A stretch of 64,000 bases of DNA from Squalus acanthias (Eukaryota), in the NCBI GenBank assembly GCA_030390025.1, contig CM059431.1, positions 129,706,001-129,770,000 on the forward strand, given 5' to 3'. Under the pieces are notes generated by a model. It saw only the letters and a list, made by a program, of their open reading frames with translations. It made no database searches and was not told the origin of the DNA. A program made the position numbers and the translations under genes. Of this stretch, positions 16,730 through 62,433 are shown in pieces (positions within the stretch are counted from its first letter, which is position 1; each line of letters opens with the position of its first letter).

Positions 16730-17040
16730 AGGATTGTTACAGGACTATGGGGAGTGTGTGGGGCATTGGCATTAGTTGGGATTGATCCAGGAACATGGGG
16801 AGACAGTTGGATTACTTTGGGGTTGATACAGGGCTATGGGGTGAGAGTGGGGCTGTGGAAATAGTTTTGGGTTGATACAGGGAATTGCAGAGAGTAGGGC
16901 AGTGGGATTAGTTTGGGATTGATACAGGGCTATAGGGAGAGCGTGGGGCAGTGGAATTAGTGTGCGATTGATATAGGGCTATGGGGAGAGAGTGGTGCCG
17001 TGGGATTAGCTTGAGATTGATACAGGGCCACGGTTAGAGA
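16730..17040 (+). repeat. Approximately 49-bp minisatellite (GTGGGATTAGTTTGGGATTGATACAGGGCTATGGGGAGAGAGTGGGGCA), left part
   Basis: About six imperfect tandem copies are visible. The array continues at 19430-19770 after a CR1 insertion. Confidence 0.85.
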
Positions 17041-18240
17041 ACATAAGAACATAAGAAATAGGAGCAGGAGTAGGCCAATTGGCCCCTCGAGCCTGCTCCG
17101 CCATTCAATAAGATCATGGCTGATCTGATCCTAACCGCCAATCAACTATCACAGAACCATCTCCTGAACCTAACAGAATTGGACACACGAAATAGGAGCA
17201 GAATCAGGCTACACGGCCCCTGGGCCCGCTACACTACCCACAGGGCCATGACCGAGCCGAACCTAGACTCATGTCCAAATTCCTGCCCGCTCCCCGTAAC
17301 CCTCAATTCCCTTTACTTCTAGGAAACTGTCTATTTCTGTTTTAAATTTATGTAATGATGTAGCTTCTACAGCTTTTTGGGGCAGCATATTTCATGGACC
17401 TACCACCCTCTGAGTGAAGTAGTTCCTTCTCATCTCAGTTTTGAAAGAGCAGCCCCTTATTCTAAGACTATGCCCCCTAGTTCTAGTTTCACCCATCATC
17501 GGGAACATCCTCCCCGCATCCAACCCCTTCACAATCTTATATGTTTCAATAAGATCGCCTCTCATTCTTCTGAACTCCAATGAGTAGAGTCCCAATCTAC
17601 CCAACCTCTCCTCATATGTCCATCCCCGGGATTAACCGAGTGAACCTTCTCTGTACTGCCGCGAGAGCAAGTATGTCTTTTCTTAAGTATGGACACCAAA
17701 ACTGTATGCATTATTCCAGGTGCGGTCTCACCAATACCTTGTACAACTGAAGCAATACCTCCCTATTTTTACATTCTATCCCCTTAGCAATGAAAGCCAA
17801 CATTCCATTGGCCTTCTTAATCACTTGCTGCACCTGCATACTAACCTTTTGAGTTTCGTGCACCAGGACCCCCAGATCCCTTTGTACTTCAGTACTTTCC
17901 AGTTTCTTGCCATTAATAACTTGCTGTACTATTTTTCCTGCCAAAGTGCATAACCTCACACTTTCCAGTATTGTATTCCATCTGCCAAATTTCTGCCCAC
18001 TTACTTAGCCTGTCTATGTCCCCTTGCAGATTTTTTATGTCCTCCTCACTCACTACTTTCCCTCCCATCTTAGTATCATCTGCAAACTTTGATATGTTAC
18101 ACTCGGTCCCCTCCTCCAAATCGTTAATATAGATTGTAAAGAGTTGGGGACCCAGCACTGACCCCTGCGGAACACCACTTGTTACTGTTTGCCAGTCTGA
18201 GAATGAACCATTTATCCCAACTCTCTGCCTTCTGCTAGAT

Positions 18241-18390
18241 ATGATGTGGAGATGCCGGCGTTGGACTGGGGTGGACAAAAATGAGAAGTCGCACAAACTA
18301 ACTTACCTGACGAAGGAGCGAACTGTTCCGAAAGCTTGTAAAATTAAATAAATCTGTTGGACTATAACCTGGTGTTGTGCAACTTCTCAT
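18241..18390 (+). mobile_element. 150-bp Penelope-like pLTR-only insertion (inverted arm, hammerhead ribozyme, AATAAA)
   Basis: Homologous to the pLTR at 51070-51197. Degenerate TSD TTCTGCTAGAT (18230-18240) / TTCTGTTAGCT (18391-18401). Confidence 0.85.
18303..18341 (+). ncRNA. Minimal type I hammerhead ribozyme
   Basis: TTAC-CTGACGA-A-GGAGC(GAACT)GTTCC-GAA-AGCT-T-GTAA. Catalytic core CUGANGA/GAAA, stem I TTAC/GTAA and palindromic stem III AGCT. Confidence 0.8.
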
Positions 18391-19429
18391 TTCTGTTAGC
18401 TAGCCAATCCTCTATCCATGCCAGAATATTACCCCCAATCCCGTGATTTTTTTATCTTAAGCAATAATCTTGTGTGGCACCTTGTCAAATGCCTTTTGGA
18501 AGTCTAAATACACCACATCCACTGGTTCCCCTTTATCCACCCTGTCTGTTACGTCCTCAAAGAACTCCAGCAAATTTGTCAAACATGACTTCCCCTTCAT
18601 AAAACCATGCTGACTTTGTCCTATTAAATTATGATTATCCAAATGTCCTGTTACTGTCTCCTTAATAATGGACTCCAAAATTTTACCTACCACAGATGTT
18701 AGGCTAACCGGTCTATAGTTTCCAGCCTTCTGTCTACTGCCCTTTTTAAATAAAGGTGTTACATTAGCAGTTTTCCAGTCTGCCGGGATCTTTGCTGAGT
18801 CCAGGGAGTTTTGGAAAATTACCAATGCATCCACAATCCCTACCGCCACTTCCCTCAAGACCCTAGGATGTAAGCCATCAGGTCCAGGTGATTTATCCAC
18901 CTTGAGTCCCATTATTTTACCGAGTACCACTTCCTTAGTGATTTTGATCGTGTTTAGCTCCTTCCCCCCTATAGCCCCCGGTTTGTCCAGTGTTGGGATA
19001 TTCTTAGTGTCCTCTACTGTAAAGACTAATACAAAATATTCAGTGTTTTTGCCATCTCCATATTTCCCACCATTAATTTCCCAGTCTCATCCTCTAAGGG
19101 ACCAACATTTACTTTAGCCACCCTTTTTCTTTTTATATAACTATAAAAACTCACTATCTGTTTTCATATTTTTTGCTAATTTACTTTCATAATCTATCTT
19201 CCCTTTCTTAAAATCAATCTTTGTTATTTTTTGCTGTCTTTTAAAGTTTTCCCAATCCTCTATCTCCCACTAGATTTGGCTACCTTATAAGCCCTTGTTT
19301 TTAGTCGAATACTATCCTTAATTTCTTTACTTAGCCACGGATGACTGTCTTTTCTTTCACACCCTTTTCTTCTCAGTGGAATATATATTTTTTGGAAGTT
19401 ATAAAATAACTCCTTAAATGTACACCACT

Positions 19430-19770
19430 GAACAGGGCAGTGGAATTAGTTTGGGATTGATACAGGGCTGTGGGGAGAGAGTGGGGCAGCGGCATTAGTT
19501 TGAGATTGATACAGGGCTATGGGGTGAAAGTAGGGCAGTGGGATTAGTTTGGGATTAATACAGGGCTATGGGGAGCGAGTGGGGCAGTGGGATTAGTTTT
19601 GGATTGATACAGGACTATGAAGAGGGGGCATTGGATTGTTACATGGCTATGGGGCGAGAGCAGGGCAGGGGATTACTTTGGGATTGATAGAGGGCTATGG
19701 GGTGAACGGGGAGTGGGATTAGTACAGGGCAATGTGGAGAGGGGTAGTGGGATTAGTTTGGGATTGTACC
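19430..19770 (+). repeat. Approximately 49-bp minisatellite, right part
   Basis: Same unit as 16730-17040. Confidence 0.85.
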
Positions 19771-33609: not shown

Positions 33610-33687
33610 CATCCTTAACAGGCCGGGACAAGTGCAATACCACATACATCTGCCAGCATTGCAACAAATCCCAACCGGTGCAAGACA
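33610..33687 (-). ncRNA. MIR92A: pre-miR-92a hairpin; mature 3p UAUUGCACUUGUCCCGGCCUGU at 33618-33639
   Basis: Exact reverse complement of canonical miR-92a-3p. The 5p arm GGUUGGGAUUUGUUGCAAUGCU is miR-92a-1-like and pairs with it. Confidence 0.97.
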
Positions 33688-33731
33688 GGGTTGCATGTAC
33701 AAAAGGGATACTTTAACACTGGTTGTATTTT

Positions 33732-33815
33732 ACTACTATAGTCAGTTTTGCATGGATTTGCACAGCAATAATTATTAACAGCTGGATGCAAACCTGCAAA
33801 ACTAACTAGAGAAGC
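33732..33815 (-). ncRNA. MIR19B: pre-miR-19b hairpin; mature 3p UGUGCAAAUCCAUGCAAAACUGA at 33742-33764
   Basis: Exact canonical mature sequence. 5p arm AGUUUUGCAGGUUUGCAUCCAGC (33781-33803), as in miR-19b-1. Confidence 0.97.
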
Positions 33816-33856
33816 TTTTCATAGTTAAAGTTTATGCAGCTGCAGTCCGTTAGCTA

Positions 33857-33927
33857 GTAGTACTCAAGTGCTCATATTGCAGTAGATTACTACAACACTA
33901 CCTGCACTATAAGCACTTTAATACTGC
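33857..33927 (-). ncRNA. MIR20A: pre-miR-20a hairpin; mature 5p UAAAGUGCUUAUAGUGCAGGUAG at 33898-33920
   Basis: Exact canonical mature sequence with complementary 3p arm ACUGCAAUAUGAGCACUUGAG. Confidence 0.97.
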
Positions 33928-33980
33928 TTGAGCTATTAACCGCCAACAGCATTTTTTCACACCACCACTTAGCAGTCAAC

Positions 33981-34062
33981 CCAGTCCACCATCAGTTTTG
34001 CATAGATTTGCACAACTAATTTCTTCTTGTGGTGCAACCATGCAAAACTGGTAGAGAACTGC
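33981..34062 (-). ncRNA. MIR19A: pre-miR-19a hairpin; mature 3p UGUGCAAAUCUAUGCAAAACUGA at 33992-34014
   Basis: Exact canonical mature sequence. Loop CAAGAAGAA as in vertebrate mir-19a. Confidence 0.97.
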
Positions 34063-34138
34063 AATAACTAGTTTGGGGTTCACAGAGCTATTCTACCAAT
34101 CTGGAGACTGGTACACCCAAGCTGATCAGAGTTACTTA

Positions 34139-34209
34139 TGCCAGAAGGAGCACTTAGGGCAGTAGATTCTACTCTACTTCACTATCTGCACTAGATGCAC
34201 CTTAACACA
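34139..34209 (-). ncRNA. MIR18A: pre-miR-18a hairpin; mature 5p UAAGGUGCAUCUAGUGCAGAUAG at 34182-34204
   Basis: Exact canonical 5p arm and exact canonical 3p arm (ACUGCCCUAAGUGCUCCUUCUGG, 34141-34163). Confidence 0.97.
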
Positions 34210-34282
34210 AGAGACTTTACCAATGATTCAGAGCAAGCTGCAAGCAAGATTCTGAAAATGCCAGCTTCAATGAGGGGTTACT

Positions 34283-34365
34283 GTCAATATAATGCTTGAA
34301 GTGCCTCCACTGCAGTAGATTTTAGACACTACCTGCACTGTAAGCACTTTGACATTACTTCTGAC
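34283..34365 (-). ncRNA. MIR17: pre-miR-17 hairpin; mature 5p CAAAGUGCUUACAGUGCAGGUAG at 34329-34351
   Basis: Exact canonical mature sequence. Basal stem GUCAGAAGUAAUGU...GCAUUAUAUUGAC resembles vertebrate mir-17. Confidence 0.97.
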
Positions 34366-35100: not shown

Positions 35101-36287
35101 TTTTTTTAACCCCCACCCCCTTTCAAGATACCAAATCTCTCTGCAGATGGCCCAAGTTGGTAGGACACAATCTAACTACATTGTTCAAGCAGAAGATACA
35201 AAAATGCTCACATCTAGTATGCTTTATTGAAATACTGGCAGCAAACCCAACTACAGGCAATGCAGTATTTTAAATACTCCATGTGCCCTGGTGTTTAAAA
35301 ATGGTAAACTTGATAGGCATGGGGAAAATATTGACTAGTATCTTTATATAGAGGCTATAGTCCTACATGGTATAGTGTATCAAGTTTCATTGCACAGCAA
35401 GGTGGATAGAAGCACAAGGAAACCACTCATGGCAGTGCTCAGACTATTCTGCCTTTACCTTCCAATAAGAAAACTTGGAGAAACAGTCATTGTAAATGAC
35501 AATCATAATATTTTACATACAAATACTATTCAAACTAACAGAAGTTGGTCAGCTCATTGTAAAACTGGAAACAGGGTTTTAATGTAATTGTAGTTTAAAC
35601 TGCAATTATTTTACTATTCTTCAAGTAACCATTGCACCCATATGTAAAGATGAATACACCAAGATTCTCAAAAGGGCAAGAGGACATAACAAATAAGGCA
35701 AGCATATCTGGATGTGAAAAAGTATTCAATTTGTAATAAACCCAGAAGGTTTTTCAGCACTGCTCCACAATGGTTGAGGCAAATAACAGATGCCTTTAAA
35801 AGCAGAAGCAGAATGTAATCTAGCAATAAGCAGTACAAGGGGAAAGCACTGGAAACCAGTGTACTTTACACTGCATTGGTGCAACATATGCAAGTGAAAG
35901 CAAGACATTAAACTGCAAATATCTCAGCCAGTTAAACCACCCATGTACAACACAAATCCCCAAAACAAGTTTCAAAGAGCTTAACTTTGTTTTTTTTGGG
36001 GGGGGTGGGGAGAAAAAGAGAAAAAAATAGGAAAAAACAAAAATTAGAAATCCGTGAGATAAAATTAGAAATCCATGAGATTCTCACATGTGCCCTTCAA
36101 TATGAAGAGCGCTGTAAAAGAACAATTCCATGCTGGGCAGACCTACTTCCCCCACCACGCGTGGCTGCAGCCTGGGGTCGCTTCCTCCCCTCTTTCCACC
36201 CCCACACCCCAAACAAAAAAGGCGGGTCTGCAGGTTGTTCGTTCGCTGCATGCCCGCAGCCCACGCGGTGAATGGGTCAGTGCCGCC

Positions 36288-36437
36288 GGGGCTGTGGATT
36301 TGCCGCCGCCGCTGGGGCTGTGCATTTGTAGCCCACGCGCTCTGCCCCATGCACCCGGGGCCGTGGATTTGCAGCCCGCGCGCGCTGCCCTATGCACCCG
36401 GGGCAGTGCATTTGCAGCCCACGCGCTCTGTCCCATG
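36288..36437 (+). repeat. 43-bp GC-rich minisatellite, about three copies plus one partial
   Basis: Unit GGGGC.GTG.ATTTGCAGCCC.CGCGC.CTGCCC.ATGCACCC starts at 36314, 36357 and 36400, with a partial copy at 36288. Confidence 0.85.
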
Positions 36438-37933
36438 TCGCCGCCGCCACATTTTGCACGAGCCGCCACTCGACGTCGCGGGTCAACGGTCGGTCAGAAA
36501 TGACGCATTCGCCAAACCTCGAGCACACTTCACAACGGGCGGGGGGGCCGGGGGGGAAGAGAAATCGAACCGGCCGACAGTATCGGGAGAAAACGTATCG
36601 CCTTTCGACATCGATATGCAAAAAGGGATTCCAGTTCTTTTAAGTTTTTAATGGTTCGTTCCCCGAAAAAACTACTTCAACAGAAAGGCCCGAGGCCTAC
36701 ACGCGTGCTGCACGGCGCATGCGTATATGCCCCTCCCCCCCGCACAACATGGCGCCGCCGAGGCGAGAACCCCAAAAAAATATGAAACCCCTGAAAGAGG
36801 CGGCGGGGGACCCCGAGACTCCCCAGCCCGCGCTCGCCCCGCCGACCTCAGCCCCCATTACAAAAACACAGGGACCCAGCCCGCCAGTGGAGCGCGCGCC
36901 ACACACACACACACACACACGCGCGCGCGCCGTCCACGCGGCTGCCGCGCCAACGGTCTATTTTCAAATTGTAGAAGTCCAATAGCACGCGGCCACGGAC
37001 TCAGGCGGATTTAACGGGGGGGGGCGGGGGTGCCGAGGGCAGAATCAATCCGCCGCACCGGGGACACGGGCGCCACCCACCGCCGCTCCTCCTCCGGGCC
37101 GTGCGGCCTGGGCCCGCTCAAACATGTGGCTTTGTTCTGAGCAACTTTTATGAGGCGTACGGGGGGTGGGTAGGGAGAAGGGAAAAAAAGGATTTTTTTT
37201 TTTAAATAAAGACGAATGCCGCCGCCCGACCCCGGGGGGCAGCCTAAAAATAAAACACCGAGCGGGCTAATAGAAAGAAATACAAACCGAGCCGCCCCGA
37301 GACCACCCCTCCAGGCCCCGCTTTGTGACCCAGTTGTATGGATGGAGGCGGCGCGGCCCGGCCCGGCCCCACCACGCGGACTCGCCGCCACCCCGAGCAG
37401 CAACCGGCAATAACAAAGATACACACACACACACACAACCCACGGAAATGGCCGCAACTCCACGGAGTAGCCGACAGAGAAAGAGCTGGGGGGAAAGCGA
37501 GAGAGAGCGCGCGAGTACCAGGCCGGGGCTACAACGAAAACCCGGAGAGCAGAAAGCAGGAGAGGGAGAGAGGCCGGGAGCCGAAGAGAAAGCAAAAAAA
37601 AGAGAGCGAGGGTGGGTGGCGGGGGAGGAAAGCGAACCCCGCACCGGCCGGCCCACCGTACACCCGGGCCACCTTCACTCACACACTCGGGGCGGAGCGG
37701 AGCGGCCCCAGGCTTGGCCCCGACCCGCATCCAGCGCCGTGCTGCTGCTCTCGGTCGGGGGGGGAAGCTGCCACACGGTCTGTCCACGGAGGAGGATAGC
37801 GGTGAGTCTCCCCCTCCCCCGGCTCCCGGAGCCGCTGCTCACACCGAGCTGGTGTGCGCTTCCTTTCCTCTCTCTCTCTCCTGGAGGGAGCCAGGGCGCG
37901 GAGACGGTTTAAGTGCTGCGATTTCTCGAAAGT

Positions 37934-38052
37934 GGCGCGAATGCAGCACCATGTGGGTGAATGAAGGGCGGTTCCCGGCTCAACGTAAATATACTACACA
38001 CGGGCTCATTAGCATGTGGCCGAGTGTCAATCAGAGCCGCTGCCATAGCAAC
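37934..38052 (-). promoter_or_regulatory. Putative Pol II core promoter of the miR-17~92 host gene (TSS about 37962)
   Basis: On the minus strand, TATATTTA (37993-37986) begins 31 nt upstream of Inr-like TCATTC (A at 37962). Also present: E2F-like TTCGCGCC (37941-37934), CATGTG (37950-37955), octamer-like ATGCTAAT (38015-38008), TGATTGAC (38033-38026) and RFX X-box-like GCTGCCATAGCAAC (38039-38052). Confidence 0.7.
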
Positions 38053-43700: not shown

Positions 43701-43886
43701 AAGACAGGCAGGCAGTCGGACCGAACGACCCCCTCGACCGCCCACTGCCTGGACCAGTTGATGACCACTTTGGCCAGGCCCAGGAGCAGTCCTATGAGGA
43801 GGTCCCCTCCGCACCGGGTGACCAAAGATCAGGAGCGTAGGACTGAAGTGCAGCCAGAAATTGAGGAGCAGCCCCTTCAAATAGTG

Positions 43887-45213
43887 AGAAGTCGCACAAC
43901 ACCAGGTTATAGTCCAACAGTTTTATTTGAAATCACGAGCTTTCGGAGCGCTGCTCCTTCGTCAGGTAAAGTGAGGGAATACAAATCAGCAAAGCATATA
44001 TAGACAGAGAACAATGTGTCTCTGACTGCCCTCCATCACACCTCGGCAGAGATACAATCAGTCAGGAAGGCATTACATCAAAGACACAACAAAATACAGC
44101 TAAGACAATGAGGTGGGGTCACAGGGGGTCCAACGTGTCAAATGCTGCAGTCTGCAGTTAAGCTTTTTACTTTTTTTTAAAACTGGAAATCACATCTGTG
44201 AACAAGACAATGATGACTCGCGTCTGGATGACTCTACGTCATGTAGCGTGACATGAAACCAAGATCCCGGTTGAGGCCGTCCTCATGGGTGCGGAACTTG
44301 GCTATCAGTTTCTGCTCGATGATTTTGCGTTGTCGTGTGTCTCGAAGGCCACCTTGGAGAACGCTTACCCGCAGATCCGAGGCTGAATGTCCTTGACTGC
44401 TGAAGTGTTCCCCGACTGGGAGGTAACAATCCTGCCTGGCGATTGTTGCACGGTGTCCGTTCATACGTTGTCTCAGTGTCTGCATGGTCTCGCCGATGTA
44501 CCATGCTGCGGTGCATCCTTTCCTGCAACGTATGAGGTAGACAACGTTGGCCGAGTCACATGAGTATGTACCATGTACCTGGTGGGTAGTGTCCTCACGT
44601 GTGATGATGTTATCTGTGTTGATGATCTGGTATGTCTTGCAGAGGTTGCCGTGGCAGGGTTGTGTGGTGTCGTGGTCGCTGTTCTCCTGACAGCTGGGTA
44701 GTTTGCTGCGAACGATGGTACTTTTGAGGTTAGGCAGCTGCTTGAAGGCGAGTAGTGGAGGCGTGGGGATGGCCTTAGCAAGGTGTTCGTCGTCATCGTT
44801 CCAAATGCAAACCGGTTGCATCCTGTCTTTATCAGTGTTTACCGAGTATGATCCAATCTTATACTGAAATGTATATTCGACGCCATCTTGTCTGCCCACT
44901 GTATTTCTGGAAGCTTCTGCCACGATGCGCGGCGGCCATTTTACAGGCTTCTGTGTCCTTTATATCAGGACAGCATTTTGTTTAATAAAACTGATCAAAC
45001 GAATCTGCTTCTCTTATGTTATTTCGAATCGCGATAATTGCGAAACTTTACAGAGGTGTGATGGAGGGCAGTCAGAAACACATTGTTCTCTGTCGAAGGA
45101 GCAGCGCTCCGAAAGCTCGTGATTTCAAATAAAACTGTTGGACTATAACCTGGTCTTGTGCGACTTCTCATTTTTGTCCACCCCAGTCCAACACCGGCAT
45201 CTCCGCATCATGA
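43887..45213 (-). mobile_element. 5'-truncated Penelope-like element (GIY-YIG end, pLTR, unrelated filler, inverted pLTR arm)
   Basis: Segment 44234-44798 closely matches the 3' end of ORF 51197-53875. 13-bp TSD CCTTCAAATAGTG (43874-43886 / 45214-45226). Confidence 0.92.
43933..43969 (-). ncRNA. Minimal type I hammerhead ribozyme
   Basis: Minus strand TTAC-CTGACGA-A-GGAGC(AGC)GCTCC-GAA-AGCT-C-GTGA. Predicted cleavage after CUC. Confidence 0.8.
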
Positions 45214-45717
45214 CCTTCAAATAGTGGAAGAGGGGCTGCAACCTCTCACACTCCATGTATACATGGAACACGGACTCCTCCAGGCCACAGAAAAGGCAGG
45301 CAGCCTGGGAGTCCGTGAACCTACTTAAAACTTTATTGCACGGGACTGCTCCGTCCAGGCCAAGTCCCCAATAGATAAAGGGAGGACTCCTGCGTAGAGA
45401 GCCCTCCATTGGGGGCCTCCGCCGGACGGCAAGATGGTGTGCCAAGGCATGTCCGGACTGCAGACGAGGATGGCAAAATGGAGGGTGTGCAAGAGTAGCC
45501 CGTACAGGAAACCCCACCGTGCAGAATGAAAAGGCACAGAGGGCATTTCCCGGAGACAGCTCTGAACTTTGTGTAAAACACTCCTTATCAGTAATTGTTT
45601 GCCTATATTAAATCAATGCAAAACTAATTTTACACCAGAGTATAAACAACATATAGAATGCCTTTTTGTTTGTATTTCAGCCCAAAAAAAATACATAAAA
45701 AATAACAATGCATTGTT

Positions 45718-47715: not shown

Positions 47716-50281
47716 TATTAAACCAGGCATGCGCGTTTCCCGGCCCTATTAAAGGGTGCGGGTCTGATGATGTCATTGATAACTCATTTCCAGCGCCCAT
47801 ATTTAAAGCAGCCTTGCACACAACTCATTTGAAGGTGAGTAAAGGAGTGTGGAAGGAGCATTGATAAGGTTGGATTTATTGTGCAAAGTGATAAATATGA
47901 ATACCCAAAGGCAGAGGGCTGCACCCCACTTTACAGATGCCTCACTGCATATTCTGGTCAAGGCAGTAAGAGCACGCAGGGAGGTCCTCTTCCCAGCAGA
48001 TGGGCGCAAGAGACCTCCCCAAGAGACCAAAAGGGCCTGGCTGGAAATAGCAGAGGAGGTCAGCAGCAGGGAGGTCATGAGGAGGACCTGGATACAGTGC
48101 AGGGAGAGTTTCAATGGTCTGCTGAGGTCAGGAAAGGTGAGTGCAATGCCACACTCACCTTCATCCTGATGTGCCTGTCACCACATCCCCATCACTCTGC
48201 CTTCCCAAGCCTACTCCTGCACATCATTACTCACACCAACATACCGTCCCGGTCCATCCATCGCTCTCTCTCTATGTACATACAGTACTCACATTCCCAT
48301 CTGACTAATCACCCCTCACACTCATCCTCATCCTAATGCAATCATAGCAAGTAACACCACAGAAGGAGGCCATTTGGCATTGCCACCCCACTCCCTCATA
48401 GTCACCCTCTACAGATGTAACCCATCCATTCCTTACGCTCATTCCATCACTCTCACTCAAACTTCCCTTCTTTCCCTCCTTGCAGGAGCAAAGAGCCTAG
48501 AACAACAGAGAGAGGGAGAGAACTGGAGGTGGCCCTTCAGTCTTCGCACACCTAACAGCAGCAGAGGAGGGGGCTCTGGAGATCTCGGGAGCTCGAGATG
48601 CTGGCGGTGGGAGATGGACATCCCAGCAACCTGGTGACAGAATCACGTCTCATAAAGCCACATGGCATACAACAGTCACTCATATGGTGACTGATGTCAG
48701 CAGCCAGTGAAATGTCACAGAGTCATAGTCAGAGAGTTATACAGCACAGAAAGAGGCCCTTCGGCCCATCGTGTCCACGCCGGCCATCAAGCCCTGTCTA
48801 TTCTAATCCCATTTTCCAGCACTTGGTCCGTAGCCTTGTATGCTATGGCGTTTCAAGTGCTCATCTAAATGCTTCTTGAATGTTGTGAGGGTTCCTGCCT
48901 CTACCACTCTTTCAGGCAGTGAGTTCCAGATTCCAACCACCCTCTGGGTGAAAAAGTTTTTCCTCAAATCCCCTCTAAACCTCCTGCCCCTTACCTTGAA
49001 ACTATGCCCCCTTGTTAGTGACCCCTCTACTAAGGGGAAAAGGTCCTTTCCATCTACCCTATCTATGCCCCTCATAATTATGTACACCTCAATCAGGTCC
49101 CCCCTCAGCCTTCTCTGCTCTAAGGAAAACAACCCCAGCCTGTCCAGTCTCTCTTCATAGCTGAAACGCTCCAGCCCAGCTAACATCCTGGTGAATCTCC
49201 TCTACACCCTCTCTAATGCAATCACCTCCTTCCTATACTGTGGCGACCAGAACTGCACACAGTATTCCAGCTGTGGCCTAAGTAGCGTTTTGTACAGCTC
49301 CATCATAACCTCCCTGCTCTTATATTCTATGCCTCGGCTAATGAAGGTAAGTATCCCATATGCCTTTTTAACCACCATATCTACCTGTCCTGCTGCCTTC
49401 AGGGATCTATGTACATGCACACCAAGGTCCCTCTGATCCTCTGTCCTTCCTAGGGTCCTACTATTCATTGTGTATTCCCTTGCCTTGTTAGTCCTCCCAA
49501 AATGCATCACCTCACACTTTTCAGGGTTAAATTCTATTTGCCACTGTTCTGCCCATCGGATCAACCGGTCTATATCGTCCTGTACCCTGAGGCTTCCCTC
49601 CTCGCTGTTTACCACCCCACCAATTTTCGTGTCATCTGCGAACTTACTGATCATACCTCCTACATTCATATCTAAATCATTAATGTACACTACAAACAGC
49701 AAAGGACCCAGCACCGATCCCTGCGGTACACCACTGGACACAGGCTTCCAGTCACAAAAACAACCTTCGACCATCACCCTCTGCCTCCTGCCACTAAGCC
49801 AATTTTGGATCCAATGTGCCAAGTTGCCCTGGATCCCATGGGATCTTACCTTCTTGACCAGTCTCCCATGTGGGACTTTGTCAAAAGCCTTACTGAAGTC
49901 CATGTAGACCACATCAACTTCACTACCCTCATCCACACACCTAGTCACCCCCTCGAAAAATTCAATCAAATTGGTCAGACATGATCTCCCCCTGACAAAG
50001 CCATGCTGACTATCCTTGATTAATCCTTGCCTCTCCAAGTGGAGACTAATTCTGTCCCTCAGAATTTTTTCCAGTAATTTCCCTACCACTGATGTTAGGC
50101 TCACTGGCCTATAATTCCCTGGTTTATCCCTACTACCCTTCTTGAATAATGGTACTACGTTAGCTGTTCTCCAGTCCTCTGGCACCTCCCCTGTGATGCG
50201 GAGATGCCGGTGTTGGACTGGGGTGGACAAAATTGAGAGGTCGCACAACACCAGGTTATAGTCCAACAGTTTTATTTGAAA

Positions 50282-50319
50282 TCACAAGCTTTCGGAACTA
50301 TCGCTCCTTCCTCAGGTGA
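50282..50319 (-). ncRNA. Minimal hammerhead ribozyme (copy in the inverted pLTR)
   Basis: Reverse complement of 51072-51109. Confidence 0.8.
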
Positions 50320-51071
50320 AGTAAATTGGATACAGAATCGTCAGAGCATATATAGATGGAAAAAAAAGCATGTGTACTTTACAATTGCAGACCAATAAAT
50401 TAAATCATCCTGACTATCTGCCGAGGTGTGATAAAGTTAATTAAGTCAGCCAGGAAGGTACCACATCAAAAGACATAGCAAGATACAACTGAGACAATGA
50501 GGTGAAGTCGCAGGGGTTCTAACGTGTCAAAAGCTGCCGTCTGTATGTAAAACGAAAAGCTTTAAAAAGCAGTCAAGGACATTCAGCCTCGGATCTGCGG
50601 GTAAGCGTTCTCCAAGGCAACCTTAGAAACACACGACAACGCAAAATCATCGAGCAGAAACTGATAGCCAAGTTCTGCACTCATGAAGACGGTCTCAATC
50701 GGGATCTTGGGTTTATGTCACGATACATGACGTGATCCGGACTCGAGTCGTCGTTAGCTTGTTCACAGATGTGATTCCCAGTAAAAAAGTAAAAATTTTC
50801 CCAGTAAAAAAGTAAAAATTTTTTTTTAAAGCTTTTCGTTTTACATACAGACGGCAGCTTTTGACACGTTAGAACCCCTGCGACTTCACCTCATTGTCTC
50901 AGTTGTATCTTGCTATGTCTTTTGATGTGGTACCTTCCTGGCTGACTTAATTAACTTTATCACACCTCGGCAGATAGTCAGGATGATTTAATTTATTGGT
51001 CTGCAATTGTAAAGTACACATGCTTTTTTTTCCATCTATATATGCTCTGACGATTCTGTATCCAATTTACT

Positions 51072-51109
51072 TCACCTGAGGAAGGAGCGATAGTTCCGAA
51101 AGCTTGTGA
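51072..51109 (+). ncRNA. Minimal type I hammerhead ribozyme (5' pLTR)
   Basis: TCAC-CTGAGGA-A-GGAGC(GATA)GTTCC-GAA-AGCT-T-GTGA. Preceded by TATATA (about 51037) and followed by AATAAA (51115-51120). Confidence 0.82.
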
Positions 51110-51196
51110 TTTCAAATAAAACTGTTGGACTATAACCTGGTGTTGTGCGACCTCTCAATTTTGTCCACCCCAGTCCAACACCGGCATCTCCGCATC

Positions 51197-53875
51197 ATGA
51201 CCACTATCGACACCACAAACTGCCGGCTCAAAGTGGAGAGAATCGCCAAGAAGATCGCGCATATCGACACCGACATCAAGTATCTACAGAGATGCAAGAA
51301 AGCAGACAAGATCCCGAAAGGACTACAGATCACGAACCCACTCAAGTCGACATACAACACAGACTACGCTGAGAGACTCTGCCGTCGTACCTCTCGCACA
51401 CTCCTCAACCATCTCGTACACCAGCTCTACAGCAAACGCCACAACCTCGAAACCAAGATAGAGTCCATGCTCTCAGCCTGTGCTCAGGACACAGCAGACC
51501 AGTTACGAGACACCACCAAACAGACGAGGCAACGGAACTACGCTGCCTACATGCGCATCAAGAACAGGAAGCTTGAGAAACTCGGCATCACCACCAGCAG
51601 CAACCAAGCCTCCCCCGGTACCACGGCTGCAACCACAGGGAAGTCCATCGTCAACTTGTCCGACCATACCCTTCAACCAGACGAAATCGAAGTTCTCGCC
51701 CTAGGGCTCAAGTTCTGCCCAACCACCAAAATGGACCCCATCGGTCTCGCGGCAGACACGGAGGAATTCATCAGGAGAATGAGGCTCCGGGAATACTTCC
51801 ACAAATCCCAAGATGTCAGCAACAAACCCAATGAGACAATCAATGATCCAGAACAGCAGACAGAGGGACTCGCAGTGCAGCAACCGAAGAAAAAAGAGTC
51901 AAACTGGACCCCTCCGGAGGGTCGCTGCCCCAAGCTTGACATGTATGCTCAAGCTGTCAGGAAATGCATCAACGCCAGATTCATCAGCCGCACTCACAAG
52001 ACAGTCCAGAATGTCACCCGAGCACAACGCAACGCCATCCACGCTCTCAAGACCAACCGCAACATTGTCATCAAACCAGCGGACAAAGGAGGAGCCATCG
52101 TCATACAGAACAGAACGGACTATTGTAAAGAAGCATACCGACAACTGGACAACCAGGAACACTACAGACAGCTACCCGCAGATCCGACCAAAGAACACAC
52201 CCGCCAACTCAATAGACTGATCAAGACCTTCGATCCAGACCTTCAAAACATCCTACGCGCTCTCATCCCACGTACTCCCCGCGTGGGAGACTTCTACTGC
52301 CTCCCAAAGATACACAAAGCCAACACACCCGGACGTCCTATCGTATCAGGCAATGGAACCCTGTGTGAGAACCTCTCTGGATACGTCGAGGGCATTCTGA
52401 AACCCATCGTACAGGGAACCCCCAGCTTCTGTCGCGACACTACAGACTTCTTACAGAAACTCAGCACCCACGGACCAGTTGAACCAGGAACACTCCTTGC
52501 CACGATGGACGTATCGGCACTCTACACCAGTATCCCCCACGATGACGGCATCGCTGCAACAGCCTCAGTACTCAACATCAACAACAGCCAATCTCCAGAC
52601 GCCATCCTACAACTCATCCGCTTCATCCTTGACCACAATGTCTTCACCTTCGACAACCATTTTTTTACCCAAACACACGGAACAGCCATGGGGACCAAAT
52701 TCGCACCCCAATACGCCAACATCTTCATGCACAAGTTCGAGCAAGACTTCTTCGCTGCACAGGACCTCCAGCCAACGCTGTACACCAGATACATCGACGA
52801 CATTTTCTTCCTTTGGACCCATGGCGAAGGATCACTGAAAAGACTACACGATAACATAAACAAGTTCCATCCCACCATCAAACTCACCATGGACTACTCC
52901 TCAGAATCGGTCTCATTCCTGGACACACGAATCTCCATCAAAGACGGACACCTCAGCACTTCACTCTACCGCAAGCCCACGGACAACCTCACGATGCTCC
53001 ACTTCTCCAGCTTCCACCCTAACCATGTTAAAGAAGCCATCCCCTATGGACAAGCCCTGCGAATACACAGGATCTGCTCAGACGAGGAGGAACGCGATGG
53101 ACACCTACGGACGCTGAAAAACGCCCTCGTAAGAACGGGATATGACGCTCGACTCATCGATCGACAGTTCCGACGGGCCACAGCGAAAAATCGCATAGAC
53201 CTCCTCAGAAGGCAAACACGGGACACAACCAACAGGGTACCCTACGTCGTCCAGTACTTCCCCGGAGCGGAGAAACTACGACATGTTCTTCGCAGCCTTC
53301 AACATGTCATCGATGACGACAAACACCTCGCTAAGGCCATCCCCACGCCTCCACTACTTGCCTTCAAACAGCCGCCTAACCTCAGAAGTACCATCGTTCG
53401 CAGCAAATTACCCAGCTTTCAGGATAACAGCGACCACGACACCACACAACCCTGCCATGGCAAACTCTGCAAGACATGCCAGATCATCAACACAGATACC
53501 ACCATCACACGTGAGGACACTACCCACCAGGTACATGGTACATACTCATGTGACTCGGCCAACGTTGTCTACCTCATACGTTGCAGGAAAGAATGCACCG
53601 CGGCATGGTACATCGGCGAGACCATGCAGACACTGAGACAACGTATGAACGAGCACCGCGCAACAATCGCCAGGCAGGATTGTTACCTCCCAGTCGGGGA
53701 ACACTTCAGCAGTCAAGGACATTCAGCCTCGGATCTGCGGGTAAGCGTTCTCCAAGGCAACCTTAGAAACACACGACAACGCAAAATCATCGAGCAGAAA
53801 CTGATAGCCAAGTTCTGCACTCATGAAGACGGTCTCAATCGGGATCTTGGGTTTATGTCACGATACATGACGTGA
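51197..53875 (+). CDS. Penelope-like reverse transcriptase plus GIY-YIG endonuclease (892 aa from the first ATG)
   Basis: Uninterrupted ORF. RT motifs IKPADKGG, FYCLPKIHK, GRPIVS, MDVSALYTSIP, GTAMG and RYIDD. Cys linker PCHGKLCKTC. Endonuclease motifs VVYLIRC...WYIGET...RMNEH...E...GLN. Confidence 0.96.
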   Translation: MTTIDTTNCRLKVERIAKKIAHIDTDIKYLQRCKKADKIPKGLQITNPLKSTYNTDYAERLCRRTSRTLLNHLVHQLYSKRHNLETKIESMLSACAQDTADQLRDTTKQTRQRNYAAYMRIKNRKLEKLGITTSSNQASPGTTAATTGKSIVNLSDHTLQPDEIEVLALGLKFCPTTKMDPIGLAADTEEFIRRMRLREYFHKSQDVSNKPNETINDPEQQTEGLAVQQPKKKESNWTPPEGRCPKLDMYAQAVRKCINARFISRTHKTVQNVTRAQRNAIHALKTNRNIVIKPADKGGAIVIQNRTDYCKEAYRQLDNQEHYRQLPADPTKEHTRQLNRLIKTFDPDLQNILRALIPRTPRVGDFYCLPKIHKANTPGRPIVSGNGTLCENLSGYVEGILKPIVQGTPSFCRDTTDFLQKLSTHGPVEPGTLLATMDVSALYTSIPHDDGIAATASVLNINNSQSPDAILQLIRFILDHNVFTFDNHFFTQTHGTAMGTKFAPQYANIFMHKFEQDFFAAQDLQPTLYTRYIDDIFFLWTHGEGSLKRLHDNINKFHPTIKLTMDYSSESVSFLDTRISIKDGHLSTSLYRKPTDNLTMLHFSSFHPNHVKEAIPYGQALRIHRICSDEEERDGHLRTLKNALVRTGYDARLIDRQFRRATAKNRIDLLRRQTRDTTNRVPYVVQYFPGAEKLRHVLRSLQHVIDDDKHLAKAIPTPPLLAFKQPPNLRSTIVRSKLPSFQDNSDHDTTQPCHGKLCKTCQIINTDTTITREDTTHQVHGTYSCDSANVVYLIRCRKECTAAWYIGETMQTLRQRMNEHRATIARQDCYLPVGEHFSSQGHSASDLRVSVLQGNLRNTRQRKIIEQKLIAKFCTHEDGLNRDLGFMSRYMT

Positions 53876-54211
53876 TCCGGACTCGAGTCGTCGTTAGCTT
53901 GTTCACAGATGTGATTCCCAGTAAAAAAGTAAAAATTTTCCCAGTAAAAAAGTAAAATTTTTTTTTTAAAGCTTTTCGTTTTACATACAGACGGCAGCTT
54001 TTGACACGTTAGAACCCCTGCGACTTCACCTCATTGTCTCAGTTGTATCTTGCTATGTCTTTTGATGTGGTACCTTCCTGGCTGACTTAATTAACTTTAT
54101 CACACCTCGGCAGATAGTCAGGATGATTTAATTTATTGGTCTGCAATTGTAAAGTACACATGCTTTTTTTTCCATCTATATATGCTCTGACGATTCTGTA
54201 TCCAATTTACT

Positions 54212-54249
54212 TCACCTGAGGAAGGAGCGATAGTTCCGAAAGCTTGTGA
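54212..54249 (+). ncRNA. Minimal type I hammerhead ribozyme (3' pLTR)
   Basis: Identical to 51072-51109, offset by 3140 bp. Confidence 0.82.
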
Positions 54250-57023
54250 TTTCAAATAAAACTGTTGGACTATAACCTGGTGTTGTGCGACCTCTCAATT
54301 TTGACCTCCCCTGTGGCCAGAGATGTTCTGAAAATTTGTGTCAGAGCCTCTGTAATCTCCTCCCTTGCCTCACACAGCAGCCTGGGATACATCTCGTCTG
54401 GGCCTGGGGATTTATCCACTTTTAAGCCCGCTAAAACCGCTAGTACCTCCTCCCTCTCAATACTAATTTGTTCAAGTATATCACAATCCCCCTGTCTGAT
54501 TTCTATGCCTACATCGTCCTTCTCCATCGTGAACACAGATGCAAAATATTCATTTAAAACCCCATCTACATCTTCTGGCTCTACACACAGATTGCCACTT
54601 TGGTCCCTAATGGGTCCTACTCTTTCCCTGGTTACCCTCTTGCCCTTAATATACTTATAAAACACCTTGGGATTTTCCTTTATTTTGCCCGCCAGTGTTA
54701 TTTCATGCCCCCTCTTCGCTCTCCTAATTTCTTTTTTAAGTACCCCCCTGCACTTTCTATACTCCTCTAGGGCTTCCACTGTTTTTAGTCCTTTGTATCT
54801 GCCAAAAGCCTCCCTTTTTTTCCTAATCCATTCTCATATATCCCTTGACATCCAGGGTTCCCTGGGCTTGTTGGTCCCACCCTTCACCTTTACGGGAACA
54901 TGTTGCCGTTGTACTATCTCTATTTCCTTTCTGAAAGACTCCCACTGCTCTGATGTGGATTTTCCTACAAGTAGCTGATCCCAGTCCACTTTGGCCAGAT
55001 CCTGCCTTATCATATTAAAATCGGCCTTCCCCCAATTTAGAACCTTTATTTCCGGTCCATCTTTGTCCTTTTCCATGACTACCTTAAATCTCACCGAATT
55101 ATGGTCACTGTCACCAAAATGCTCCCCTACTAACACTTCTACCACTTGCCCGGCTACATTCCCTAGAATTAGGTCCAGTACCACCCCCTCTCTTGTAGGA
55201 CTTTCTACATGCTGGCTCAAAAAGCTCTCCTGGATGCACTTTAAGAATTCCGCACCCTCTAAGCCTTTCACACTCTGACTATCCCAGTTAATATTGGGGA
55301 AGTTGAAATCCCCTACTATTATTACCCTATTATTTCTACACTTCTGAGATTTGCCTACATATCTGTTCCTCTATCTCCCCCTGACTGTTTGGGGGCCTAT
55401 AGTACACTCCCAGCAAAGTGCTTGCCCTCTTTTTGTTTTGAAGTTCTACACATATGGCCTCATTAGAGGAACCTGCTAAGATATCATCCCTCCTTACAGC
55501 AGCAATTGACTCCTTGATTAATATTGCGACACCCCCTCCTCTTTTACACCCACCTCTGTCTCGCCTGAAGATTCTATACCCCGGAATATTGAGCTGCCAG
55601 TCCTGCCCCTCCCTCAACCATGTCTCTGTGACAGCAACAATATCATACTCCCATGTGTTCATCAACACCTTCAATTCATCTGCCTTACTCGCAAGACTCT
55701 TTGCATTAAAATAAATGTCATCCAGCCTTGCCATACTCCCTTGTGCCGTTACATATTTGCTCTGCCTTCCAGGCTGACTTGTTTATTCCTCTATATTTGG
55801 CTGTGCATCACCCCCTACTATAGCTCCACTCCGTATCCCATCCCCCTGCCAAGTTAGTTTAAACCCCCCCCAACAGTACTAGCAAACCTCCCCGCAAGGA
55901 TGTTGGTCCCATTCCGGTTCAGGTGCAACCCATCCGACTTGTACAGGTCCCACCTTCCCCAGAAGCAGACCCAGTGATCCAGGAAACTAAAGCCCTCCCT
56001 CCTGCACCAACTCTTTAGCCACGCATTCATCTGCTCTATCCTCCTATTCCTATACTCACTAGCACGTGGCACCGGGAGTAATCCAGAGATTACAACCTTT
56101 GAGGTCTTGCTTTTTAATCTGCTACCTAGCTCCCTAAATTCTTGTTCAGGACCTCATCCCTCTTTCTACCCATGTCGTTGGTACCAATGTGAACCACGAC
56201 CTCTGACTGTTCGCCCTCCCCCTTCAGAATGCCCTGCAGCCATTCGGTGACATCCTTGACCCTGGCATCGGGGAGGCAACATACCATCCTGGCGTCACGT
56301 CTGCGGCCACAGAAACGTCTATCTGTTCCCCTTACGATAGAATCCCCTATCACTATTGCTCTCCCATTCTTTTCCTCCCCTCCTGTGCAGCTGAGCCACT
56401 CGTAGTGCCATGGACTTGGCTTTTGCTGCATTCCCCTGAGAAACCATCTCCCCCATCAGTATCCAAAACGGAAAATCTGTCGGAGAGGGAGATGGACCCA
56501 GGGGACTCCTGCACTACCTTCCTAGTTCTTTTACTCTGTCTGGTGGTCACCCATTCCCTGTCTGCCTGTGCACTCTTTACCTGCGGTGTGACCACCTTGT
56601 TAAATGTGCTATCCACGAAGATCTCAGCTTCGCGGATTCTCCACAGTGACTCCAGCCGCAGCTCCAGCTCCGAAACGCGGATTTCGAGTAGCTGCAGCTG
56701 GAGACACTTCCTGCACATGTGTTCGCCCTGGACATCTAAAGTGTCCCTGACTTCCAACATAGCACAGGAGGAGCACTCCATGCTGCCGAGCTGCCCTGCC
56801 ATGTCCTACCCTGAATTTACTCCTTTTAAATTAAAGAATATTAAATACACTAGGGACCTTACTTCCCTTTAAACACTACTTCCTCTAAACTGGAGACCTT
56901 ACTTTTACTTTAATGACTGGAATGTAGAAAGACTGTAGAAATACTCACCGCTGGTTCTCTGTCCCCTCTTGTGCAGCTTTTTAGCTCCTGCTCTCCTGGA
57001 AGCTGACAAAGATGGAAAAAGGA

Positions 57024-59774: not shown

Positions 59775-61380
59775 GGGGGAAAAGATCAGTTGATTGGTGA
59801 GACCGCACCTGGAATACTGCATACAGTTTTGGTGTCCTTACTTAAGGAAAGACATCCTTGCTCTCGAGGCAGTGCAAAAAAGGTTCACTCGGTTAATCCC
59901 GGGGATGAAGGGGTGGTCATATGAGGAGAGGTTGGGTAGATTGGGACTCTACTCATTGGAGTTCAGAAGAATGAGAGGCGATCTTATTGAAACATATAAG
60001 ATTGTGAAGGGGTTGGATCGGGTGGATGCGGGGAGGATGTTCCCGATGACGGGTGAGACGAGAACTAGGGGACATAGTCTTAGAATAAGGGGCTGCTCTT
60101 TCAAAACTGAGATGAGGAGGAACTACTTCACTCAGAGGGTGGTAGGTCCATGGAATATGCTGCCACAAAAAGCTGTAGAAGCTACAACATTAATTAAATT
60201 TAAAACAGAAATAGACAGTTTCCTAGAAGTAAAGGGCATTAAGGGTTACGGGGAGCGGGCAGGAATTTGGACATGAGTCTAGGTTCGGATCGGTCATGGC
60301 CCTGTGGGTAGTGGAGCGGGCCCAGGGACTGTGTAGCCTGATTCTGCTCCTATTTCGTGTGTGCAATTCTGTTAGATGCAGGAGATGGTTCTGTGATAGA
60401 TAGTAGATTGGCGGTTAGGATCAGATCAGCCATGATCTTATTGAATGGCGGAGCAGGCTCGAGGGGCCGATTGGCCTACTCCTGCTCCTATTTCTTATGT
60501 TCTTATGTTCTTATATTAGCGCCTCCCGTTAGCGCCCTAAGAGGGCGCTAACGGGGAGCAAAGCAACTAGCGCCCGGGCGCAGCAATGTTTGCGCCGCTG
60601 GCGAAATTGACCAGACATTTTGCGGCGGCGCTAAACACTACCGCCACAATCTCCTGCGCCCGCAGATCATGACGTCAGTCGAGCGTGGAACGCCCCGGTA
60701 GCGCCCCAGACCGGATATTCAGTGGTGCCCCCTGCCTTTCCGCCTGCCGCTAGCAACGACAGGTAGAGTGGAACGTTTTGCAGTCAGGAAGGGACTGGGG
60801 GAGCACTATTTAAAGGCGGCCGCTTCCTGCCTTTTTTTGTCGGCGACATTTTTGCACCACGCATTCTGAGAGAGAGAGAGACTTCTGGAGAGATTAAACG
60901 CTGTGTAAAGGAGTTTTGCATACTGAGCAGCACTTTGCAGGTTCATTTTGATTTGACCTTGCATCAATTTAGAATAGACTATGGGGGCTGCACTCTGAGC
61001 TCTTTCCCTGGGCCTCTCCATTGTTCTTTCCAGCAGAATTGATGTACAGGTATCTTCAGGCCGAGATTCAAGGCTGCAATGAGCAGGGTGTGGCTGGAGA
61101 GCAAGATCGGCCGTCCCCTTTAAGAACTGGCCGGCGCCAGTGTGTCTGTGTTGCATTGCTAACTGACATCACATGAGCTTCGCCAGCGCTCTGAGGTAGC
61201 GTCTTGCTCCTCGGCGTTAGCGCCTTAAGAGAGGTGTGTAGCATCTGATTTAGCGCTCCAATCACCTCCGGGGCGATAGAAGCTAAGTTTGCAGTCGGAG
61301 GTGATAATTAGCGCAGGCGTTAAACTTTGCGCCAGTTCGATATTTGCGCCCCAAATGGGGCGATACCGAATTTCTCCCCC
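59775..61380. mobile_element. Harbinger MITE copy 1, with a CR1 3' fragment (about 59795-60513, plus strand) inserted next to its left TIR
   Basis: Termini GGGGGAAAAGATCAGT and GAATTTCTCCCCC, TSD ATA/ATA. Body 60517-61380 aligns with 61560-62433. Confidence 0.85.
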
Positions 61381-61540: not shown

Positions 61541-62433
61541 GGGGGAAAAATTCAGTTGGTTGCGCCTCCCGTTAGCGCCTTAAGAGGGCGCTAATGGGGC
61601 GCAAAGCAGCTAGCGCCCGGGCGCGGCGAAGTTTGCGCCGCTCGCGAAATTAACTAGACATTTTGCGGCGGCGCTAAACACTACCGCCACGATCTCCTGA
61701 GCCGGCAGATCATGACGTCACTCGAGTGTGCAACGCCCCGGTATCGCCCCGGAGCGGATATTGAGTGGCGCCCCCTGCCTTACCGCCTGACGCTAGCAAC
61801 GACAGGTTGAGGGGAGCGTTCTGCAGTTATGAAGGGAAAGGGGGAGCGCTATTTAAAGGTGACCGCTTCCTGCCTTTTATTGTTGGTGCCATTTTTGAAC
61901 TACGCATTCTGAGAGAGAGAGGGAGAGACTTCTGGAGAGATTCAACGTTGTGTGAAGGAGTTTAGGGTACTGAGCAGCACTTTGCAGGTTCATTTTGATT
62001 TTCCATTCCTTGTATTGATTTAGCAGAGACTGTGGGGGCTGCACTCTGAGCTCTTTGCCTGGTACTCTCCATTGTTCTTTCCAGCACATTTGATGTGCAA
62101 GTCTCTCCAGGCCGAGATTCAAGGCTGCAATGAGTAGGATGTGGATGGAAAGCAAGATTAACCATCCCTTTTAAGAACTGGCCCGTGCCATTGTGTGTGT
62201 GTTCCATTGCTGACTGACAGTACATGAGCTTCGCCAGCGCTCTGAGTTAGCGCCTCACTCCTCGGCCTTTGCGCCTTAAGACAGGTGTGCAGCGCCTGAT
62301 TTAGCGCTCCAATCACCTCCAGGGGCGTTAAAAGTGAAGTTTCCAGTCAGTGGCGATAATTAGCGCCAGGCGCTAATTTTTGCGCCCGGACGATATTTGC
62401 GCCCCAAACGGGGCGCGACTGAATTTTTCCCCC
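61541..62433. mobile_element. Harbinger MITE copy 2 (893 bp)
   Basis: Perfect 16-bp TIR GGGGGAAAAATTCAGT and 3-bp TSD TGA/TGA. Same terminus as the element at 9022. Confidence 0.92.

Follow-up and report, generated by a model that had tools for sequence, protein, structure and literature searches.

Hammerhead ribozyme motifs and copy footprints of a Neptune-type Penelope-like retrotransposon family in the shark Squalus acanthias

Minimal hammerhead ribozymes were defined in the repeats of Penelope-like elements (PLEs), including Neptune of fishes, where dimers cleaved weakly; excision, ligation and more-than-unit copying from circles were proposed in the same work (Cervera and De la Pena 2014, PMC4209133). 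The metazoan motif of that study combines a CUGANGA/GAAA core with an extra base between positions 9 and 10.1, a G10.1-C11.1 pair, a short stem I and a palindrome at 15.2-16.2 without a stem III, and it occurs in both pseudo-LTRs as well as in thousands of stray copies. The shark family described here shares all of these features. Its stem II has 5 bp, compared with 7-8 in the Schistosoma families. The genome contains at least 45,707 cores whose stem II is of this form; the largest number given for a vertebrate in PMC4209133 is about 9,000, in Xenopus tropicalis, and cartilaginous fishes are not named in the part of that paper available to us. The kind of motif, the dimer idea and the circle idea are thus already known, and an earlier note on this DNA, which offered excision and circularisation as its own proposal, overstated their novelty.

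In PAc, a Poseidon element of Anolis carolinensis and the one PLE that has been reconstituted, two internal start sites make the tail, both DNA strands are cut and extended, and ribozyme cleavage needs the protein (Frangieh et al. 2024, PMC11167929). Ribozyme mutants of PAc insert normally in vitro, and the accessible text of that study reports no RNA-seq reads ending at the cut. The shark element shares the two tail-defining start sites, a predicted dimer and apparent two-strand cutting, whereas its linker is of the Neptune type. The PAc ribozyme overlaps the start codon, with the start sites 111-118 nt into the ORF, whereas in the shark element the predicted cut precedes the ATG by 92 nt and the tail runs up to the ATG. 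The Neptune clade (Craig et al. 2021, PMC8557442) has in common with the shark element the reverse transcriptase (RT), a CX2-5CxxC linker, a C-terminal GIY-YIG domain, a partial tandem, an inverted 5' copy and a 30-40-bp tail that is often at one end only. A one-ended tail, palindromic joints and an internal promoter have been described (PMC3846280, PMC2377424), the tail in qualitative terms (PMC8557442, PMC3846280), and, according to PMC2377424, how the pseudo-LTR is regenerated has no evident mechanism. A literature search confined to open articles without their supplements returned no published counts of such copy-end and repeat footprints.

Non-LTR retrozymes are tandem non-coding units of 227-543 nt that derive from PLEs and carry a type I hammerhead in each unit (PMC7229834, bioRxiv 10.64898/2026.07.22.740005). 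Axolotl retrozyme circles are dimer-dependent and ligated by RtcB (PMC7229834). One of nine dimers cleaved, and the mean retrozyme unit was 363 bp in one cartilaginous fish (bioRxiv 10.64898/2026.07.22.740005).

The element, its protein and its surroundings

Within the window, that is, the whole 64-kb stretch of DNA analysed, a single insertion occupies 50196-54303 between target duplications of 12 bp (Table 1). Contigs of three other sequencing runs carry the empty site, in which 50183 is joined to 54304 with 12 letters in common. The host of the insertion is an older LINE-type RT element (RVT_1 match at 49202-50278, minus strand), which may be CR1 or L2. The stretch is contained in 23 of 24 sequencing runs, nearly all as contigs of guessed type, and four were aligned; contigs of RNA runs, again of guessed type, cover the element, one raw-read RNA run aligned no reads on the stretch, and no sites at which many molecules start or stop were called. 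The 5' pseudo-LTR (596 bp) is a partial second round of the unit, comprising the ORF end, the 3' UTR and the ribozyme, and differs from its 3' counterpart by one substitution in 580 columns. Measured from the cut site, the inverted arm has its outer end 90-92 nt downstream. In the following, positions marked + are counted past the predicted cut; the untailed copy-start site (+52 to +59) lies in the loop of the predicted hairpin.

The uninterrupted 892-aa ORF encodes an RT with YIDD at residue 532 (RVT_1, E 1.4e-8), a CX4CxxC linker at residues 753-761 as well as, C-terminally, a GIY-YIG endonuclease with a C-C-H-H pattern. The GIY-YIG match (E 2e-4, 22.0 bits) falls just below the Pfam cut-off of 22.6, and the protein aligns at 39% over 771 aa with a relative that does pass it. 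Among the best 120 of 647 matches (7999 candidates scored), the nearest named relatives were shark proteins with 81-94% identity, and no clade-labelled PLE reference was present. The single ORF with RT and C-terminal GIY-YIG, the pseudo-LTRs, the inverted 5' copy, the 30-40-bp tail and the target duplication are all features of endonuclease-positive PLEs. Because a CX2-5CxxC linker lies between RT and endonuclease, the element is assigned by this motif to the Neptune-type PLEs. The same linker also occurs in Nematis and Naiad (PMC8557442), and only Neptune and Poseidon were found in vertebrates in the survey, as far as its available text reports (bioRxiv 10.64898/2026.07.22.740005).

The word AATAAA occurs only twice on the plus strand of the element, at 51115-51120 and 54255-54260, each time 10 nt after a cut, and is followed by a GU-rich stretch (51115-51150, 54255-54290) upstream of both copy-start sites. 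It is possibly a poly(A) signal and, if used, would end transcripts ahead of both copy-start sites.

Two older Penelope insertions carry the remaining cores of the window. One is a miniature fold-back. In the other, at 43877..45215, an untailed arm (minus) with the core 43933-43969 (minus) and the ORF end is followed by filler and then by a tailed arm (plus), and the target word is duplicated at both ends; the approximately 240 bases at 44779-45020 between its arms have no match to the element. Elsewhere in the window, six microRNA hairpins at 33609-34361 (minus) exceeded the Rfam cut-offs in the order mir-17, mir-17, mir-19, mir-17, mir-19 and mir-92, an arrangement like that of a miR-17~92-type cluster. 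Its promoter may be a GC-rich island at 36000-38000, and both the 43.9-kb and the 50.2-kb Penelope copy are situated upstream of the cluster. The window also contains a direct duplication of approximately 870 bases (60519-61380 and 61562-62433, 86%) and two related imperfect tandem repeat regions (16722-17028 and 19430-19766).

Table 1. Coordinates of the Penelope-like insertions in the window and of their parts
Feature	Position	Strand	Evidence or remark
Left target-site duplication, 12 bp	50184..50195	+	in older minus-strand LINE-type RT element
Right target-site duplication	54304..54315	+	repeat comparison, empty site
Inverted, tailed arm (reverse complement of 50824-51195)	50196..50567	-	100% identity, 375 nt
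5' pseudo-LTR	50568..51163	+	99.3% to 53708-54303
3' pseudo-LTR	53708..54303	+	untailed end at +58
Tail between the two copy-start sites, 34 nt	51164..51197	+	reaches the ATG
Predicted hairpin, 51123-31 paired with 51172-80	51123..51180	+	z -0.15, no better than shuffles
Uninterrupted 892-aa ORF	51197..53875	+	ATG 51197, stop 53875
Minimal type I hammerhead motif	51072..51109	+	sequence, genome-wide pairing, folding
Stem I of this core	51072-75/51106-09	+	
CUGAGGA of this core	51076-82	+	
Extra A of this core	51083	+	
Stem II of this core	51084-88/51093-97	+	
GAAA of this core	51098-101	+	
Palindrome AGCU of this core	51101-104	+	predicted cut 51105/51106
Hammerhead core of 3' repeat	54212..54249	+	predicted cut 54245/54246
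Hammerhead core in inverted arm	50282..50319	-	identical to 51072-51109
A of initiator-like word, 7 nt before core C3	51069	+	modal short-copy 5' end, related subfamilies
Older miniature fold-back insertion	18236..18396		short tailed arm (-) joined to untailed arm (+)
Core in untailed arm of the fold-back	18303-18341	+	
Older inverted insertion, another subfamily	43877..45215		

Hammerhead motifs in the window and the genome

The earlier note listed five intact cores in three sequence variants. All five read as described, with exact coordinates and strands, and the cores starting at 50282, 51072 and 54212 have the same sequence and lie within a single insertion; the window thus holds three independent core variants. 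A sixth core at about 45095-45122 (plus), truncated in front of stem II by the inversion joint in the tailed arm, had been missed. Each of the five consists of CUGANGA, an extra A, a 5-bp stem II, GAAA and GC, followed by U+U or U+C. Stem II is GGAGC/GUUCC or GGAGC/GCUCC with the loops GAUA, GAACU and AGC, and stem I is UCAC/GUGA, UUAC/GUAA or UUAC/GUGA. The covariation claimed within the window is present but thin, amounting to one two-sided change and two wobbles among the three variants, and it holds genome-wide. Two same-strand cores 3140 nt apart with the ORF between them were likewise found as stated. A loose core pattern matched the window 14 times, compared with 6.3 +/- 2.6 in shuffles, and none of 100 shuffles reached 14; eight of the 14 matches were outside any family context and were taken as chance. 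An Rfam scan of the window with E up to 1 matched no hammerhead family. This is expected because this form of the motif has no stem III, and it is not evidence against the motif. When folded in isolation, the motifs form stems I and II, although shuffled sequences fold equally well (z -1.1, -1.4 and 0.0). The view that stem III is a palindrome unable to close alone is supported.

In the 3.7-Gb genome, a 27-base word just past the cut has 76,701 exact matches and an ORF-start word has 593. The core was sampled in 97 of the first 100 end matches, taken by position and anchored outside the ribozyme, giving 103 anchored copies together with those of the window; 88 of these had a readable core, and most of the others were truncated. 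The extra base between 9 and 10.1 and the G10.1-C11.1 pair, both of which were built into the core pattern, fit 88 of the 103 copies. The GC of stem III was left free in the pattern and is invariant (88/88), while N7 (G 37, C 36, A 12, U 3) and loop II (19 forms) vary. H17 is U in 75 and C in 13 copies and never G, so that the triplet is CUU in 75/88. The third pair of stem I is CG in 55, UA in 25, UG in four and other in four copies, and the fifth pair of stem II is CG in 81 and UA in four. The outer pair of stem I is broken in 19 of the 88 copies and in 9 of 37 distinct variants. These 37 variants remained from 45 after exclusion of eight that were truncated or gapped; 96.7% of their cells pair, a value reached by none of 500 shuffles, and slid controls gave 23-49%. 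Covariation in stems I and II comprises two pairs changed on both sides among related sequences, that is, few independent events. Free variation of N7 and loop II, the fixed GC of stem III and 96.7% pairing together indicate, at the sequence level, that the motif is kept under selection. The identification of minimal type I hammerheads in PLE pseudo-LTRs was upheld, and the five motifs are almost certainly ribozymes of this PLE kind. The 40 nt past the cut are conserved as strongly as the core. In one subfamily (loci L081:328-371, L082, L100, L060 and L093), CUGANGA is replaced by CCGACGA; it makes up 6/88 copies, four of which also show a compensated U-A pair closing stem II.

Copy ends, insertion geometry and tandem repeats

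The 3' ends of copies form two groups, one at +46 to +68 (mode 52) and one at +86 to +108 (mode 93), which puts the two copy-start sites some 55 and 93 nt past the cut. From one fixed anchor, 74,508 copies reach +1, 72,743 reach -3 and 71,388 reach -6, a loss of 2.4% across the cut compared with 1.9% over the next three bases, mutation included. The cut site is thus passed over by 97.6% of the 74,508 copies and at most about 1% end there; among 35 long copies, one (L161) and perhaps two (L163) begin at the cut. A linear template would stop copying at +1, and the lack of a pile-up there argues that cut linear RNA is not copied. Judged from these ends, the template is uncut or re-joined RNA. The excised linear unit-length RNA envisaged in the earlier note is not the copied form, since the copy-start sites lie downstream of the cut and no copies pile up at it.

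Among arms of position-ordered inverted pairs, 31/64 end at -10 to -49 and 1/64 at +8 to -9. In a mixed sample of 253 arms with a core, 85 joints lie at most 55 nt in front of the core and 57 of these at most 10 nt, with a mode 7 nt before the core at the A of an initiator-like word. The mode is common to fold-back and other copies and to arms with and without the tail; it was found in 0/9 of the stubs of the window's own subfamily. It is likely a transcript start, in which case the stubs would likely derive from uncut linear RNA. A cap-derived G before the modal start, at first seen in 10/10, arose partly from choosing whichever subfamily matched best; a fair count puts it at 10/14 compared with 30/60 elsewhere (10/15 of all joints at -7, p 0.39) and is a hint only. 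The peak before the ribozyme is present in first-round ends (26/85) and absent from second-round ends (0/19 distinct arms, p 0.003); with matched loops only, the values are 8/40, one of the eight being a library gap, and 0/19 (p 0.045). The GAUA and GACA subfamilies, the commonest among long copies, show no first-round peak (0/9 each), and the contrast is therefore weak because it is confounded by subfamily. Short-arm 5' ends at -13 were library gaps and were discarded, and two pairs at -215 and two at -236 were self-matches with true ends at -81/-125.

Insertion geometry was recorded in 79 inverted insertions, namely that of the window and those among loci L031-L200 with a shared flank word of at least 9 bases. 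One tailed and one untailed end were found in 76/79; none had two tails, and in the remaining three no tail was scored. In PAc in vitro, both strands use both sites alike (PMC11167929), whereas the 76 shark insertions use each of the two sites once. The flank word was 12 bases long in 33, 13 in 22 and 14 in 10 of the 79. Arm lengths correlate (Spearman 0.69; 32 pairs, two of them mis-resolved), and no rule for the longer arm was apparent in these 32 pairs (untailed further in 15, tailed in 11, tie in six). Subfamily markers, for example the length of loop II, differ between the arms in 8/72 pairs compared, which suggests that two RNAs were used at least sometimes; most pairs are alike, and the arm differences of L106 were excluded as an alignment artefact. 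The one-tail geometry would fit a two-headed complex that supplies a partner in trans for the palindromic stem III. The targets are AT-rich 12-mers, several of which recur inside host repeats. The 12-mer of the window element (50184-50195) recurs at least four more times and another word five times (L083, L116, L117, L146 and others), possibly reflecting hot spots in abundant host repeats. No microsatellite targeting was seen among the insertions examined, in contrast to the Neptune clade (PMC8557442).

Across 54,721 columns, the repeats of 60 tandem pairs differ by 57 substitutions. With the 3048-nt pair of L049 (a neighbouring insertion) excluded, 59 pairs at 49 loci remain, in which minor alleles agree in 1279 and disagree in 15 cases at a mean between-locus distance of 10.6%; many of the concordant cells are deep subfamily differences and hence non-independent. 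Alleles held by 2-5 loci agree 266 times and disagree nine times, and private alleles agree 25 and disagree 20 times. The nearest sequence is the own repeat in 33 pairs, a tie in 17 and another locus in nine. Only two repeat differences recur, both of them CpG changes with opposite polarity. The 5' joints of 51 long copies are all distinct, share nothing with the flank and spread from 0 to -2454; for 16 loci the 5' extent is biased, since the search that yielded them required 105 nt upstream. The longest arrays have about 4.7 units in a single orientation, and two or more full units occur at 4/~93 loci (first 100 of the 593 ORF-start matches). One arm of the C7 array contains two units that differ at two shared markers. 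In the C2 array, one change is present in 2/3 units and a 1.6-kb deletion only in the first-copied unit. Such unit differences argue against a single clean circle as the source; variants at unit positions 2851-2863 were ignored because of a T run.

In four mini-units (L040, L159, L181 and L182; 342, 342, 339 and 286 nt), a deletion joint peculiar to the locus is tandemly repeated, and each retains the ribozyme and at least +1 to +178. Two further loci show one deletion joint, and all six keep the ribozyme and the first 67-133 nt of the ORF, which matches the first ORF part needed by PAc (PMC11167929). As short non-coding tandem units with a type I hammerhead in each, the mini-units agree with the definition of retrozymes. 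They differ from those described (PMC7229834, bioRxiv 10.64898/2026.07.22.740005) in being fresh internal deletions, in three cases 99-100% identical to the autonomous element, in occurring at one locus each, in carrying minimal rather than canonical ribozymes and in being known here from genomic DNA. Three other loci (L146, L151 and L156) are tiny insertions of an ORF-start piece (about +76 to +227) and a short tail piece, without the ribozyme.

Templates of long copies and the role of cleavage

The reading of the long copies that we favour over any other single one is that a ribozyme-cut and re-joined RNA circle was their template; we put it at slightly below an even chance, with template jumping on uncut RNA next. 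Near-identical repeats, arrays and repeated private mini-unit joints fit rolling copying of a circle. The absence of run-off at the cut, the all-distinct 5' joints and second-round ends without a peak before the ribozyme point the same way. The circle part of the earlier proposal of excision and circularisation thus finds indirect support in tandem homogeneity, arrays and mini-units, while its linear excised template does not stand. Another locus is closer than the own repeat in 9/59 pairs, which counts against a circle, as does the prevalence of CUU, a slow cleavage triplet. The circle joint at the cut would be identical in letters to the genomic tandem sequence. Pairing through AGCU alone, as formerly suggested for the two same-strand copies, is not favoured, since a nearest-neighbour model gives -20.1 kcal/mol for the imposed dimer compared with 2 x -10.5 (-21.0) for the monomers, and the folding model gives stem I a probability of 0.02 in context. 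These modelled values are in line with a need for protein. The pairing partner may be the copy 3140 nt away or a second RNA. Axolotl retrozyme circles provide a precedent (PMC7229834); the in vitro dispensability of the PAc ribozyme, the lack of cut-end reads in that study (PMC11167929) and the spread of Naiad elements without a hammerhead motif (PMC8557442) count against the circle.

In a mechanism built on such circles, transcription would begin about 7 nt before the core, and the ribozymes would cut, probably only as protein-assisted pairs, to release unit-length RNA. A two-headed protein-RNA complex would cut both DNA strands about 12 bp apart and prime the two DNA ends at different sites, +55 for one and +93 for the other, with a separate RNA for each in some cases. 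Copying on uncut linear RNA would run off the RNA start and produce tens of thousands of stubs. In a minority of RNAs both ribozymes would cut and the ends would be joined, a host ligase being the likely agent; copying around the circle would regenerate the pseudo-LTR and yield partial tandems, arrays and retrozyme-like mini-units. The complete scheme, in which a two-headed complex makes a 12-bp staggered break primed at +55/+93, often on two RNAs whose palindromic ribozymes could pair in trans, with stubs from capped uncut RNA, every long copy and the regenerated pseudo-LTR from 3.1-kb circles, and retrozymes arising from these by internal deletion, is doubtful as a whole.

Alternatively, the ribozyme might cut only as a side function (RNA turnover, loss of a capped leader, or detachment of the possible poly(A) signal 10 nt downstream from the message), all copies being made from uncut linear RNA, and long copies and tandems arising by a jump of the cDNA from the RNA's 5' end onto the 3' repeat, akin to retroviral strand transfer. 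We regard this as possible, a little more so than the complete scheme above and less so than a circular template for the long copies. The anole element uses mainly uncut RNA with internal initiation (PMC11167929), short copies cluster 0-10 nt before the core (57/85 resolved joints), AATAAA follows each cut site, and one-off jumps are visible, as in the deleted first unit of the C2 array. A jump would also homogenise repeats, and most footprints of a circle are predicted equally. However, template jumping predicts a second-round pile-up at the RNA start, which 0/19 distinct arms show, a comparison confounded by subfamily; by hand, 0/33 long-copy arms reaching that far end there. Arrays of 4-5 units and thrice-repeated private joints would, moreover, need repeated exact jumps. 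Less probable still is an origin of long copies as read-through transcripts of rare multi-unit masters, with the likeness of repeats owed to the youth of the masters and to gene conversion or unequal crossing-over after insertion. An mRNA of several copies has been proposed (PMC11167929), and the mixed units of the C7 and C2 arrays and the loci with two or more full units would suit such masters; against them, no inherited 5'/3' repeat difference recurs, private alleles occur in both repeats 25 times, and no 5' joint is common to two of the 51 long copies. We consider this improbable, and very improbable the idea that the motif has lost its cutting activity and persists as a binding site, by its fold or its sequence, for the protein of the element or for the transcription machinery. 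Metazoan minimal hammerheads cleave weakly in vitro (PMC4209133), 8/9 Xenopus dimer elements gave no cleavage (bioRxiv 10.64898/2026.07.22.740005), and both the conserved 40 nt past the cut and the CCGACGA subfamily could be accommodated by loss of cutting. The variation nevertheless sits where hammerhead chemistry allows it (N7, loop II and H17 as U or C, never G), and the anole motif cleaves with protein, an activity lost and rescued by C3/G8 changes (PMC11167929).

What appears to be new here, as read from genomic copies, is the set of footprints, namely passage over the cut, homogenised repeats and one priming site per DNA end. The role of PLE hammerheads and the regeneration of pseudo-LTRs are still open in the available literature (PMC8557442, PMC2377424, PMC11167929). 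With its young and huge family, the shark element offers counts that limit models of PLE copying and is usable as a test system for them.
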